Below are positions 1,822 through 63,464 of a stretch of 64,000 nt of DNA, piece by piece. The translations under genes and the position numbers were made by a program. Source of the stretch: Escherichia virus TH55; the sequence record MT446421.1; one strand, 5' to 3'. The notes under the pieces were generated by a model. It did not search any database and was not told the DNA's origin. It saw only the letters and a program-made list of their open reading frames with translations. How positions within the stretch are numbered: the stretch's first letter is position 1; every line of letters starts with the position of its first letter.

Positions 1822-1863
1822 AATTTTCTCTCTTGGTTAATAAGTTTATTCTCCAGTGGGGTC

Positions 1864-1892
1864 ATTATACTCTGACCCCAAGAGTTTGTACA
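1864..1892 (-). promoter_or_regulatory. early-type promoter (sigma70-like)
   Basis: -35 TGTACA 1887-1892, 17-bp spacer, -10 TATAAT 1864-1869; upstream of 1330..1821. Confidence 0.55.
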
Positions 1893-1899
1893 CTTAAAT

Positions 1900-2652
1900 T
1901 TAATTAAAAATTTCAACAACCATGGAACGTGGAACAACAGTAAATTCACCAGCATGAACAACGTTCAGGAGTTCAACGCCATCTTCAATCCACTGGTCTG
2001 TTACCCAACCACAAATGGAACTGTTAAATGGGCGTTTGATTTGAACTGGTTTACATAACAAGTCAATAGGGTCACCCAGTTCGCTAACTTCTTCCAGCAG
2101 TACAGATTCACGCGGATAAAGGATAGCTTCAAGATTGTCACCTGATTCATTGACCGCAGTAAATTCAAAGATGCTTTGGTGATTGTGGTACTTAACTGTT
2201 TTAACGGTAAATGGAGCAAATCCAAAAATACCTTTCAGTACGCGCCAACCGGCATTCAATGCATTAGTATTATCAAAATCACCATATCCAACAAGTTGAT
2301 AGATTTTGCCAACTTTGATAGGAGTTTCTTCAACTTCCTTGAAGAGCTCAATCTCAGCTTCATAAACAATAATTTTTTCTACTTCATTAGTATCAAGGCG
2401 ACGTGCATGCAGAATATATGCGTTATAAAACCAGTTACTTTTTACAAAAGTTTCAACAATAAATTCACCTTCACCTAAAGCATCAGCCAGAGTATTATAC
2501 CCAGAAATCATAGCTGCGTTTTGAGTAATAGGTTTAACCAGATGATAAGTTTTGTTAATTTCAATAGTCATATTTTGTTTCTCAAGTTTTAATGGTTTAA
2601 TTGGGCGAACATACATACTTACAACATCAAAGTCAATAAATTCTGGTTTCAT
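1900..2652 (-). CDS. hypothetical protein
   Basis: 250-aa ORF; C-terminal VTDQWIEDGVELLNVV block shared with 1330..1821. Confidence 0.6.
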   Translation of the reverse strand: MKPEFIDFDVVSMYVRPIKPLKLEKQNMTIEINKTYHLVKPITQNAAMISGYNTLADALGEGEFIVETFVKSNWFYNAYILHARRLDTNEVEKIIVYEAEIELFKEVEETPIKVGKIYQLVGYGDFDNTNALNAGWRVLKGIFGFAPFTVKTVKYHNHQSIFEFTAVNESGDNLEAILYPRESVLLEEVSELGDPIDLLCKPVQIKRPFNSSICGWVTDQWIEDGVELLNVVHAGEFTVVPRSMVVEIFN

Positions 2653-11788: not shown

Positions 11789-12007
11789 AGTTTCCTCATT
11801 TCAATGGCCCCGAAGGACCATTATACTGTAGGTTTATCGTCTTTATTCTTACGCTTTTTTGATGGGATTTGTTCAGGGCCTTTATTGACAACTGCCCCGG
11901 AAGTGGTACCTGTTGCGATATTAGTTGGGTTTCCACCTGCATCACCGGCAGCCATATCTTCGTTGATAAAATCTTTGAATGTTTTCATAACACCCCCTTT
12001 CCGCTAT

Positions 12008-12199
12008 TTATACAACGAAGATAGCTTTATCACCATTTGCATCAGTCACTTCATAAGTGTCTTCATGATACAACGGAATAATCCAGGTAACACCATCATC
12101 AGCGATAACATGGATTGCTTCTTGGTCTTGCGACACGATTTCATATTCTTCAAAAATCTGGAAGACCGAAATCTTAGAGCCCGTACACATTGCACTCAT
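12008..12199 (-). CDS. hypothetical protein
   Basis: 63-aa acidic ORF. Confidence 0.4.
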   Translation of the reverse strand: MSAMCTGSKISVFQIFEEYEIVSQDQEAIHVIADDGVTWIIPLYHEDTYEVTDANGDKAIFVV

Positions 12200-62072: not shown

Positions 62073-62101
62073 ACGTTTCTCTTTAGTTGATTTATAAAAA
62101 A

Positions 62102-62123
62102 GCCCCAACCTTTCGGAAGGGGC
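62102..62123 (-). terminator. rho-independent terminator
   Basis: GCCCC...GGGGC interrupted hairpin followed by TTTTTT. Confidence 0.6.
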
Positions 62124-62161
62124 TATACCTTGTCGGGGTTCCACCTGCAAGGCAAGTGTTC

Positions 62162-62557
62162 TTATCCGCGAGCGAATGCCATTGCAGCGCGTTCGTTAGC
62201 ACGGTCGGTGATGTTCAAGAATTTATCACGAGCGATTTCGATTGGAGCACCAACCCAGTCAGCAGCACCATTACCTGGAGACTGTTTAGGGCGAACCATA
62301 TAAGTTGAAACTTTGGAACCGGCTAGTTTGGCACCAGGTGCCGCGGCATTTTTAACGTCTTTAGCTTTGATGCCAAACCCAGTTACGATACCCCAAGAAA
62401 CGCCATTAACTGGTTTCTTGAACATAACACGGTCACCAATTGAAACACCGGCTTTTTCTGGAGCCACTAAAGAAAATTTACCAGCTTCAGTCAGTACGGA
62501 TTCGGTGATGGTATTGCGATTTAAAAATTCTGCATATGTAAGCATTTTGTTTTCCAT
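62162..62557 (-). CDS. hypothetical protein, possible internal/virion protein
   Basis: 131 aa; N-terminus MLTYAEFLN loosely resembles IP targeting sequence; TATAAATA late motif upstream. Confidence 0.45.
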   Translation of the reverse strand: MENKMLTYAEFLNRNTITESVLTEAGKFSLVAPEKAGVSIGDRVMFKKPVNGVSWGIVTGFGIKAKDVKNAAAPGAKLAGSKVSTYMVRPKQSPGNGAADWVGAPIEIARDKFLNITDRANERAAMAFARG

Positions 62558-62575
62558 TATTAGGGTTGTTGTTAA

Positions 62576-62583
62576 TATTTATA
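62576..62583 (-). promoter_or_regulatory. T4-type late promoter motif TATAAATA
   Basis: Exact TATAAATA on minus strand 19 nt upstream of ATG 62557. Confidence 0.4.
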
Positions 62584-62594
62584 TTCCATAGTAC

Positions 62595-62643
62595 CGGATG
62601 CACCATCCGCTCGGATTTCTCATACTACCGGACGCACCGTCCG
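62595..62643. repeat. two tandem related stem-loops in ORF-free region
   Basis: CGGATG-CAC-CATCCG (62595-62609) and CGGACG-CAC-CGTCCG (62629-62643), each within a ~30-bp repeated unit. Confidence 0.6.
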
Positions 62644-62781
62644 CTCTGGAAAAACTCCGTAAAAGGGTGCGCCGTTTCAGCTGTGATATAAGGGGGCATC
62701 AACAAATCGTAAAGATTTATTAATGCCAGTCCTTAAACAGGGAACTTCAGTCCGACGACTTACCGGTAGCGACCCGGTTTC

Positions 62782-63021
62782 TCATTCAATTGTAATAGCT
62801 AATTTGACTTTAACAACCTTATAATTGGAATCAAGGTCATTGAATTCCATAAAATTTGTTGCTAATCTGCGAGTCGGGAAACTTAGATATTTATTATGCT
62901 CAGGTGGAGCGGTTAATGCAAACCATGGGACTTGTTTATCATTTTCATCAAACTCATCAAAGCTATAAACCAACTCGTTGTTGGTTATATCCATAACTGC
63001 ATATGATTCACTAATAACCAT
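62782..63021 (-). CDS. hypothetical acidic protein
   Basis: Trimmed to ATG 63019-63021 (GAGGA SD); track N-terminal extension runs through tRNA-Arg. Confidence 0.45.
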   Translation of the reverse strand: MVISESYAVMDITNNELVYSFDEFDENDKQVPWFALTAPPEHNKYLSFPTRRLATNFMEFNDLDSNYKVVKVKLAITIE

Positions 63022-63036
63022 AATATCCTCGGTAAT

Positions 63037-63113
63037 TGGTCGGGGTGGTGGGATTCTAACCCACAACCTACGGTTTAGAAGACCGTTGCTCTATACAATT
63101 GAGCTACACCCCG
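63037..63113 (-). tRNA. tRNA-Arg (anticodon UCU)
   Basis: Hand-folded cloverleaf: acceptor CGGGGTG/CACCCCG, anticodon stem ACGGT/ACCGT, loop CTTCTAA, T-arm GTGGG/CCCAC, encoded CCA. Confidence 0.75.
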
Positions 63114-63189
63114 GGTGGCCCCATCCGGACTTGAACCGGAAACCTGCCAGTTATGAGCCGGATGCTCTAACCAATTGAGCTACAGGGCC
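63114..63189 (-). tRNA. tRNA with CAU anticodon (Met or lysidine-type Ile)
   Basis: Hand-folded: acceptor GGCCCTG/TGGGGCC, D-arm GCTC/GAGC, loop CTCATAA, T-arm TCCGG/CCGGA; abuts tRNA-Arg. Confidence 0.7.
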
Positions 63190-63194
63190 TAAAA

Positions 63195-63464
63195 TTAAAT
63201 TACAAATCCAGCGGGAGCATTATCATCTTTAACCATATGCTGAATTGTATGATAAGTCATTTCTTCTGGTGCAACCAGATAAGCCGCAGTGTTAACCAAC
63301 GGGATTAATTTGACTTTATTGAATGTTGAACAACCAATTGACATAAAGGTTTCGCCTGTTGGATGCTGAATTTCGCCAAATTGGCACTCATACGAAATAG
63401 AGCAACGTTTGGTAGTGGTTGTCTTTGTTTTAGGGTCGTAAAAAGCTAATTTTAATACTAACAT
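63195..63464 (-). CDS. hypothetical protein
   Basis: 89-aa ORF upstream of tRNA pair. Confidence 0.45.
   Translation of the reverse strand: MLVLKLAFYDPKTKTTTTKRCSISYECQFGEIQHPTGETFMSIGCSTFNKVKLIPLVNTAAYLVAPEEMTYHTIQHMVKDDNAPAGFVI

Follow-up and report, generated by a model that had tools for sequence, protein, structure and literature searches.

What does a phage related to T4 carry in a stretch of its tRNA region that holds no evident gene? The 64,000-nt piece of Escherichia virus TH55 analyzed here (record MT446421.1; "the window" below) raises this question at positions 62558-62781, next to a pair of tRNA genes. An earlier note, made from the sequence alone, had seen two tandem stem-loops in this interval and had suggested a small stable RNA, analogous to those that phage T4 encodes near its tRNA cluster. 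We consider it highly probable that the interval is a composite, made of an ortholog of T4 rnaD, the gene of the species 2 small stable RNA, and of two hairpins that belong to a duplicated stem-loop/late-promoter junction ahead of a mobile late gene.

T4 rnaD (positions 1-119) aligned from its first to its last base with 62785-62666 of the minus strand at 88.4% identity (E 1e-37). The homolog therefore runs 4 nt past the end given for the interval, to 62785, and the TGA stop of an upstream 79-amino-acid (aa) open reading frame (ORF) lies inside its first 4 nt. T4 rnaD and the homolog begin with the same 10 nt, AUGAGAAACC, and both end in GGCGCACC, and we set the ends of the homolog by the annotated T4 ends (AUGAGAAACC...GGCGCACC). 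A covariance model, R1, which we built from 25 homologs, gave a single strong match in the window (133.6 bits, E ~1e-27) and scored T4's own rnaD at 111 bits at its annotated position. When 62540-62800 was compared with phage genomes by BLAST, only 62666-62782 was widely conserved, with matches in 732 phage records, among which the feature is annotated as rnaD, 'species 2 RNA', in RB3 and Aplg8. The homolog follows tRNA-Arg on the same strand and precedes the counterpart of the operon terminator at 62124-62096. It thus resembles T4 rnaD (119 nt; NC_000866 71053-71171) in strand, in its place after tRNA-Arg, in predicted fold and in both ends. Judged from its sequence, 62785-62666(-) is the ortholog of T4 rnaD. 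The suggested counterpart of a T4 small stable RNA locus beside the tRNAs is therefore homologous, not just analogous; the tandem stem-loops, however, lie outside rnaD.

The surroundings of the two genes differ. In T4 and RB3, rnaD starts 1-2 nt behind tRNA-Arg, whereas here the 79-aa ORF lies between them, and T4 rnaD is followed by rnaC, whereas the homolog has no rnaC behind it. Compared with the T4 order, a 240-bp ORF is inserted behind tRNA-Arg and a cassette is inserted ahead of the terminator. T4 rnaD is annotated and accumulates as a stable processed RNA of ~119 nt, whereas the homolog is known from sequence and is unannotated in the record of Escherichia phage UPEC07 (MW250787, genus Gaprivervirus), to which 62100-63250 (1,151 bases) is 100% identical. 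Thirteen other records span 62100-63250 at 94-98% identity and, where a lineage is recorded, belong to Gaprivervirus (Straboviridae, Tevenvirinae); parts of the region are matched by several hundred further T4-like phages. All genes around the interval are on the minus strand, and the features are arranged as follows.

63189-63114, minus strand: tRNA-Met(cat), found by ARAGORN and by the Rfam tRNA model.
63113-63037, minus strand: tRNA-Arg(tct), found by ARAGORN and by the Rfam tRNA model.
63021-62782, minus strand: 79-aa ORF of phrog_33509 (unknown function), between tRNA-Arg and rnaD.
62785-62666, minus strand: rnaD homolog of ~120 nt, placed by the T4 rnaD alignment and the covariance model.
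62665-62647, minus strand: AU-rich linker CUUUUACGGAGUUUUUCCA with GGAG inside, from the rnaD 3' end to hairpin 1, read from the sequence.
62646-62627, minus strand: hairpin 1, consisting of GAG, a CGGACG/CGUCCG stem with a GUG loop (62643-62629) and GG(U).
62624-62615, minus strand: TATGAGAAAT, a degenerate copy of a late-promoter box, from the alignment to the module of Kosakonia phage 305.
62612-62594, minus strand: hairpin 2, consisting of GAG, a CGGAUG/CAUCCG stem with a GUG loop (62609-62595) and G.
62583-62576, minus strand: TATAAATA, a presumed T4-type late promoter box, 19 nt and 31 nt upstream of the first and the second ATG of the next ORF.
62545-62162, minus strand: 127-aa ORF (131 aa from 62557) with the N-terminal leader MLTYAEFLNRNTITE.
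62160-62096, minus strand: conserved segment GAACACUUGCC... with an intrinsic terminator at its end, homologous to the T4 segment behind rnaC.
62124-62096, minus strand: the intrinsic terminator, AGCCCC...GGGGCU plus a U run, at the end of the conserved segment.
62075-61518, minus strand: DUF7338 membrane protein (PF24027, phrog_2143), downstream of the terminator, called 'holin' in the UPEC07 record.

The interval fills the space between the stop of the 79-aa ORF (62782) and the first ATG (62557; 62545 is the likelier start) of the minus-strand ORF that follows. In TH40 the 79-aa ORF is missing and tRNA-Arg abuts rnaD. Within 62558-62781 the longest ORF has 41 codons' worth of protein (41 aa), in agreement with the statement that the interval has no credible ORF. 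It lies at 62598-62723(+), and the UPEC07 record, which has no annotation here for the tRNAs or for any RNA gene, lists it as a 'hypothetical protein'. A small protein encoded by the interval is thus a reading that has both the sequence and one GenBank record behind it. The ORF, however, is antisense to local transcription, covers the conserved 3' half of rnaD and both hairpins, is left unannotated in other near-identical phage records, and is broken in relatives by 1-nt indels and by a wholly different rnaD apical module (TH44, pEC-M719, TH41). The ORF call is probably a spurious product of gene calling, and we give almost no credence to a protein from this interval. The GC content had been described as higher than in the surroundings. 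This is so on the side of the upstream ORF (0.485 for 62600-62799 versus 0.34-0.36) but not on that of the downstream ORF (0.445-0.53), which is equally GC-rich, so that the contrast is one-sided.

The interval is not a tRNA locus either. The earlier note had failed to fold a third tRNA, and ARAGORN gives only two, at 63037-63189, which the Rfam tRNA model scores at 62-74 bits; in 62558-62785 there was no Rfam tRNA match even at E up to 10, and no tmRNA was found by ARAGORN or Rfam. No family of Rfam 15 reached its gathering score in the interval, where the sole match at E up to 10 was noise (ceN108, 16.4 bits, E 3.3). T4's own rnaC and rnaD were likewise unmatched by Rfam, indicating that Rfam has no model that detects these RNAs. 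To our knowledge, rnaD and rnaC are seldom annotated and, although known since the 1970s, have no assigned function.

The fold of the rnaD homolog, on which RNAalifold, single-sequence minimum free energy (MFE) folding and inspection agree, consists of a 5' hairpin, P1, and a long irregular rod, with the following parts.

62778-62762, minus strand: P1, a 5-bp hairpin ACCGG/CCGGU with the loop GUCGCUA, which is invariant in all Tequatrovirus and Gaprivervirus copies compared.
62759-62667, minus strand: the rod, with P2, an internal loop, P3, P3b-P4-P5 and an apical loop.
62759-62753 with 62674-62667, minus strand: P2, the closing helix, GUCGUCG with CGGCG-CAC (RNAalifold and MFE).
62746-62743 with 62682-62679, minus strand: P3, (A/U)GUU with AGC(U/A) (RNAalifold and MFE).
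62727-62695, minus strand: the apical hairpin at the top of the rod.

The minus strand of rnaD folds at an MFE of -39.2 kcal/mol (z -3.56), versus a z of -0.86 for the plus strand. For the comparative analysis, 25 distinct homologs from viral contigs, metagenome contigs and phage records were aligned with MAFFT; a metagenome scan had contributed 11 loci, whereas a 15-mer scan gave mostly chance matches. In this alignment 91.4% of the cells were paired, versus 32-51% in slid controls, and compensatory change was seen at 12 of the 39 pairs. None of 500 shuffles matched the number of paired cells, the number of covarying cells or the covariation score, and 22 of the 500 matched the count of compensatory pairs. 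The model-fitted alignment of 30 distinct sequences gave 93.2% paired cells (35-47% when slid) and compensatory change at 23 of 39 pairs, with 0 of 500 shuffles reaching these values; it is biased to the structure by construction, whereas the MAFFT figures are not. A lack of structural covariation in homologous regions was the observation that had been named as speaking against a structured RNA here; we looked for such covariation, and it is present.

Variation within rnaD is unevenly distributed. Hardly any change is seen in the first 45 nt and in the last 23 nt, and the base of the rod (P2, internal loop, P3) is, in these alignments, nearly invariant among close relatives. The outer pair of P1 changes from A-U to G-C in 6 of 25 sequences, and in Moonvirus and Kanagawavirus the whole of P1 is swapped for a different 6-bp hairpin. 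The apical part occurs in three unrelated sequence versions, each of which forms a hairpin and which are spread across genera, suggesting that the apical hairpin can be exchanged as a module. Version A is that of the window; version C is found in TH44 and TH41 (both Gaprivervirus) and in pEC-M719. Resemblances of rnaD to a kink-turn, Y RNA, signal recognition particle RNA, a CsrA site and a tRNA arm, all seen by eye, were without Rfam support. A tandem G.A motif was dropped because it is not conserved, and so was a tRNA-like 3' end, as the T4 annotation ends in ...CACC and the base that follows is variable. A 'terminator-like' site on the plus strand at P1 is merely the complement of the P1 helix.

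Outside the closest relatives, R1 matched Moonvirus CF1 at 36.7 bits (E 3e-6) in a tRNA-region context, and the matches in both Moonvirus and Kanagawavirus carry compensated changes in P1, P2 and P3. The rnaD family extends to Moonvirus, and probably to Kanagawavirus. The tRNA regions of these two genera also contain several long conserved non-coding segments that are unannotated and in which Rfam gives only tRNAs at gathering score (loci L087 1640-1800 and 2050-2160; L086 1600-1760 and 2000-2120; L085 1660-1840; L078 1740-1850). One of them is ACGAGGCAGUCCAGAGAGAUGAGU...CUCUCUGGACCCGGA, and another ends in a tRNA-like GGUUCGAGCCC arm. In Kosakonia phage 305, an unannotated stretch of 84 nt ahead of the rnaD-like element (locus L078 633-716) is 74-89% identical to tRNA-Lys and tRNA-Ser genes of unrelated large enterobacterial phages; it may be a tRNA remnant fused 5' of the rnaD-like RNA.

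How the RNA would be made can be argued from T4. There, the tRNA cluster gives one ~1.75 kb precursor from a middle promoter, which yields eight tRNAs and the species I and II RNAs, and the tRNA-operon transcript stops behind the species I gene (PMC2330249). A time-resolved omics study, with a Northern blot for which an RNAC probe was used, classed RNAC and RNAD as late RNAs and called their function unknown (PMC9697503). By analogy, rnaD of the window would be co-transcribed in a tRNA-operon precursor that runs from upstream of the tRNAs to the terminator at 62124-62096, and would be excised by host RNases, its stability coming from the compact fold. The linker CUUUUACGGAGUUUUUCCA could, as a conjecture from its sequence, be a processing site of RNase E or RegB. 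A sigma-70-like match, TTGTTA-16-TACAAT at 62816-62789(-), is a candidate promoter that would start transcription at about the 5' end of T4 rnaD; the match is weak (9/12), is kept in near-identical Gapriverviruses only, and the region has no more sites of this kind than expected by chance. The region also has an inverted repeat of 19 nt (62552-62570 with 62812-62830).

The part of the interval behind rnaD has a different origin. In the T4 reference annotation (NC_000866) the order is tRNA-Arg, rnaD (119 nt), rnaC (139 nt), terminator and e.8. We found no counterpart of T4 rnaC anywhere in the 64-kb window, and its T-arm motif is absent. The T4 sequence downstream of rnaC, however, aligned to 62160-62097 (80%, E 5e-15), directly behind the stop codon of the 127-aa ORF. 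Because this terminator segment is found behind the ORF, ~500 bp took the place of rnaC, namely a cassette of the linker, two hairpins, TATAAATA and the 127-aa ORF. The cassette thus holds the slot, between rnaD and the terminator segment, of T4 rnaC (species 1 small stable RNA, 139 nt, 3' part tRNA-like), but it has neither sequence similarity to rnaC nor a T-arm-like motif. The idea that the hairpin segment is a degenerate rnaC was rejected, since the alignment score was 15 versus 14.1 +/- 2.3 for shuffles.

Among T4-like phages rnaC is a clean presence/absence module (loci L077, L057, L067, L009 and L058 versus L002, L072 and L099). Phages that bear it have GGCGCACC, a few bases, rnaC and then AACACUUGCC...terminator; in several phages that lack it, GGCGCACC(G) directly adjoins AACACUUGCC. 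The records with the 127-aa ORF (tblastn) are the very 15 Gaprivervirus records that hold the hairpin segment, and other T4-like phages have rnaC or nothing at this point. Just ahead of the operon terminator, a 35-nt stretch, ACACUUGCCUUGCAGGUGGAACCCCGACAAGG, is kept in all T4-like phages compared, with rnaC or without; it (window 62096-62160; T4 counterpart in locus L099, ~1830-1908, minus strand) may be a further structured element. Directly 3' of the terminator and ahead of the DUF7338 gene there is a near-late-promoter box, TTATAAATC.

The two related tandem stem-loops lie exactly where they had been placed, at 62595-62609 and 62629-62643. On the minus strand they read CGGATG-GTG-CATCCG (62609-62595) and CGGACG-GTG-CGTCCG (62643-62629), inside a 26-nt direct repeat of 88% identity and 34-nt spacing. 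The 21-nt hairpin motif has two copies in the window versus 0.00 expected (100 shuffles). Both copies follow one design, in which GAG is followed by a 6-bp stem closed by G-C, a GUG loop and G, and they differ from each other by a compensatory T:A to C:G change. Among seven distinct hairpin copies all 42 of 42 cells were paired (14-55% in slid controls), with compensatory change at 5 of 6 pairs and 0 of 500 shuffles as good. In MN01 and VR20, for example, hairpin 1 is CGGGCG/CGCCCG, again a compensatory change. The folding energy of the segment is unremarkable, and it is this comparative covariation that carries the case.

The strand on which the structure is selected can be read from one variant. 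In TH44 and TH40, hairpin 2 is CGGGUG/CAUCCG, with G in place of A; the altered pair is G.U in RNA from the minus strand but would be mismatched, as C.A, on the plus strand, suggesting that the selected structure is a hairpin of the sense-strand RNA. The sequence changes thus point to the hairpins acting as minus-strand RNA structure. This bears on the idea that the inverted repeats act on DNA, as operators for a dimeric protein or as cruciforms that promote recombination by the late promoter. Two 15-bp palindromes, 34-35 bp apart and just upstream of a promoter, would suit such a role, and elements of the PeSL type, discussed below, have been proposed as recombination mediators. The half-sites vary between copies (GGAC, GGGC, GGAT, AAGC), however, and the pairing is kept, which argues for a folded strand and not for base-specific protein contacts; the G.U variant, in addition, is a mismatch on the other strand. 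We regard an action on DNA as very unlikely.

The position of the hairpins suggests another possibility, in which they and their flanks (~62665-62586) would be a second small stable RNA in the rnaC slot, processed from the same precursor as rnaD. The segment lies exactly at the T4 rnaC site, directly 3' of rnaD, and its stems covary as sense-strand RNA. Being upstream of the late start site, the hairpins would be present only in the read-through tRNA-operon RNA, in keeping with such a product. The segment nevertheless lacks rnaC similarity, as described above, and the homologous unit comprises, for each hairpin, a late-promoter box as well. The Kanagawavirus pair lies behind a terminator-like hairpin and not behind a stable RNA, and in EcS1 and CHI14 the hairpins are decayed. 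A long-range helix around hairpin 1 was predicted but is broken by a substitution in TH44, and the folding z of the segment is only -1.67. A second stable RNA is therefore, in our estimate, unlikely.

The homology of the hairpins with promoter boxes comes from Kosakonia phage 305, a Kanagawavirus. Hairpin 1 is identical in this phage, which is the sole match to the segment outside the 15-record set. A scan of viral contigs with GAGCGGANGGTGCNTCCGG found only VR20 and chance matches in unrelated high-GC contigs. The phages Kosakonia 305, CIP9 and IME523 have two hairpins of like design, 35 nt apart, just upstream of GATAAATA, a ribosome-binding site and an ORF that starts MLNFNEF...ITESV. Local alignment of the hairpin region of the window with the Kosakonia 305 module scored 53, versus 14.5 +/- 2.3 for shuffles (0 of 500), and it paired hairpin 1 and TATGAGAAAT of the window with hairpin 2 and the late-promoter box TATGATAAAT of Kosakonia. 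This match indicates that the tandem stem-loops are two copies of a stem-loop plus late-promoter unit. By this comparison the box is decayed in the first unit (TATGAGAAAT) and intact in the second (TATAAATA).

We take TATAAATA to be a T4-type late promoter, on the consensus established for T4, and we infer that it is active and would drive the 127-aa gene late in infection. Hairpin 2 ends 12 nt ahead of TATAAATA, an arrangement shared by the three Kanagawavirus phages, and related phages have GTATAAATA or GATAAATA ahead of ORFs with a like leader. Neither a -35/-10 pair nor a TGCTT box could be placed at the junction.

Composite stem-loop/promoter elements at indel borders of T4-like phages, often tandem or degraded, have been described as PeSL and PmSL (Arbiol 2010; Comeau 2014; PMC4122927). 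The hairpin unit resembles these published cassette junctions. It shares with them a stem-loop directly ahead of promoter, ribosome-binding site and start codon, a location at the edge of a cassette in which close relatives differ, and tandem, partly degraded copies. It differs in its promoter, since PeSL has an early sigma-70-like and PmSL a MotA-type middle promoter, whereas here the box is of the late type (TATAAATA or GATAAATA). It also differs in its stem-loop, which, unlike that of PeSL, has a GUG triloop, GAG and G flanks and no U tract.

What the hairpins would do as RNA can be framed in several ways. On our reading they would work in the read-through precursor as a structural barrier, or insulator, which separates the stable-RNA segment from the message that follows, shielding or delimiting the former on its 3' side and the latter on its 5' side. 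Together with the promoter they may form a conserved joint for cassette exchange, as with PeSL elements. Alternatively, they may be a specific recognition element for a phage or host RNA-binding protein or RNase, which would steer precursor processing or the early translation of the late gene. In favor of such an element, the GUG loop, its closing G-C, the GAG on the 5' side and the G directly behind the stem stay constant in two genera whereas the stem sequence varies, and both genera have two hairpins at a constant spacing of 34-35 nt. Against it, no candidate factor can be named, the motif occurs at one locus per genome, and the element is lost in related phages that keep the gene. Masking of ribosome-binding sites is known for the T4 genes e, soc and 49. 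Here, we rejected the idea of a site that is masked by upstream sequence in read-through transcripts and free in late ones, because the predicted accessibility is equal in the window (0.65 vs 0.64); the values were 0.49 vs 0.59 in Kosakonia 305 and 0.58 vs 0.60 in CIP9. A recognition element is accordingly unlikely in our view. The Kanagawavirus-type modules also have an 8-bp inverted repeat (GAAUAUGA ... UCAUAUUC) whose arms flank the late-promoter box and the transcription start, shortly ahead of the ribosome-binding site (L078 2030-2065; L086 ~2310-2345; L101 ~1535-1575); it could form in read-through RNA only.

The gene behind the junction has 99-100% identity among the 15 Gaprivervirus records, and its 127-aa form is annotated in the MN01 record. 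The protein matched no Pfam or PHROG family. Its N-terminus reads MLTYAEFLNRNTITE/SVLTE and that of IpI of RB3 MKTFKEF...TITE/A (the slash marks the end of the leader). A leader of this kind with an (L/I)xE cleavage motif is presumably the capsid-targeting leader of T4 internal proteins. BLASTP of the 127-aa ORF against RB3 IpI was not significant and against a 218-aa Kosakonia ORF was weak, the likeness being confined to the leaders. The leader alone suggests that the ORF may be of the internal-protein type. Internal proteins as a class include anti-restriction factors, and the product is possibly an injected protein of the anti-defence type. The locus recalls the polymorphism of the T4 internal-protein (ip) genes (Repoila 1994, cited in PMC4122927) in that small ORFs with late promoters and an MKTF/YxEF...ITE-type N-terminal leader are swapped between related phages; it differs in being at the rnaC position and not at the classical ipI locus. 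A second TATAAATA occurs at 12012(-) (~11950-12012), followed by an ORF that starts MKTFKDFINEDMAA (MKTFKDFINE) with no GUG hairpins upstream, and this looks like another internal-protein-type leader.

Several observations weigh against the composite reading or against parts of it. The existence, the ends and the stability of an RNA from 62785-62666(-) are argued from T4. The internal loop of rnaD is replaced by Watson-Crick pairs in TH41 and UPEC01, so that the 'invariant basal domain' varies more than it seemed to at first. The R1 matches in Kanagawavirus are marginal (~19 bits, E 0.02-0.03 and up to 0.1), in the same tRNA-region context. TATAAATA is not over-represented: its 4 matches in the window are confined to the minus strand, and their count does not exceed chance. 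PeSLs are dispersed, whereas the junction is at one locus in the 64 kb of genome covered, and the motif GAGC-N4-GGTGC-N4-GG was found at this locus alone in the window and the fetched loci. The inference of the strand rests on one type of G.U substitution, and the folding energy of the hairpin segment is unexceptional on both strands (z -1.67 minus, -2.11 plus). The hairpins did not qualify as intrinsic terminators either, as they are followed by GGUAGUAUGAG and GGUACUAUGGA instead of a U tract and neither appears in the minus-strand terminator scan. In EcS1 and CHI14 only a remnant of the hairpins is left, and the promoter and the gene are kept, suggesting that the hairpins are dispensable for the downstream gene.

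As to the role of rnaD, a 2010 review called the roles of the T4 rnaC and rnaD RNAs unknown (PMC3014915). In a 2025 evolution experiment a T4-like phage was adapted to one E. coli strain, and every line acquired the same single-nucleotide polymorphism in rnaD (PMC12685909); this convergent change is the sole functional hint in the literature we searched. Our best guess is that rnaD may act as a protein-binding or host-adaptation RNA through its basal domain, and it has to be set against this guess that no sequence feature of rnaD indicates a particular partner. In a bolder version, rnaD would be a host-specificity or anti-defence RNA, whose invariant base docks a conserved partner and whose swapped apical hairpin is the variable determinant, and the GUG hairpins, as a dedicated recognition element, would couple precursor processing to cassettes of injected internal proteins. 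The convergent mutation points weakly in that direction, and we hold the bolder version to be decidedly unlikely.

The locus is of a known kind, not a new one, and the rnaD copy itself is unannotated in the matching record. For these RNAs this matters because the identical record carries a spurious antisense ORF where rnaD lies, and Rfam has no model that would detect it. The alignment and the covariation-supported structure, with a conserved base and an exchangeable apical module, suffice for a family model and for the design of mutants. A well-defined GUG-triloop hairpin motif is a by-product of the analysis. For the evolution of T4-like phages, the junction adds a late-promoter version to the composite stem-loop/promoter elements that are proposed to mediate cassette shuffling, and it borders a gene that resembles an injected internal protein.

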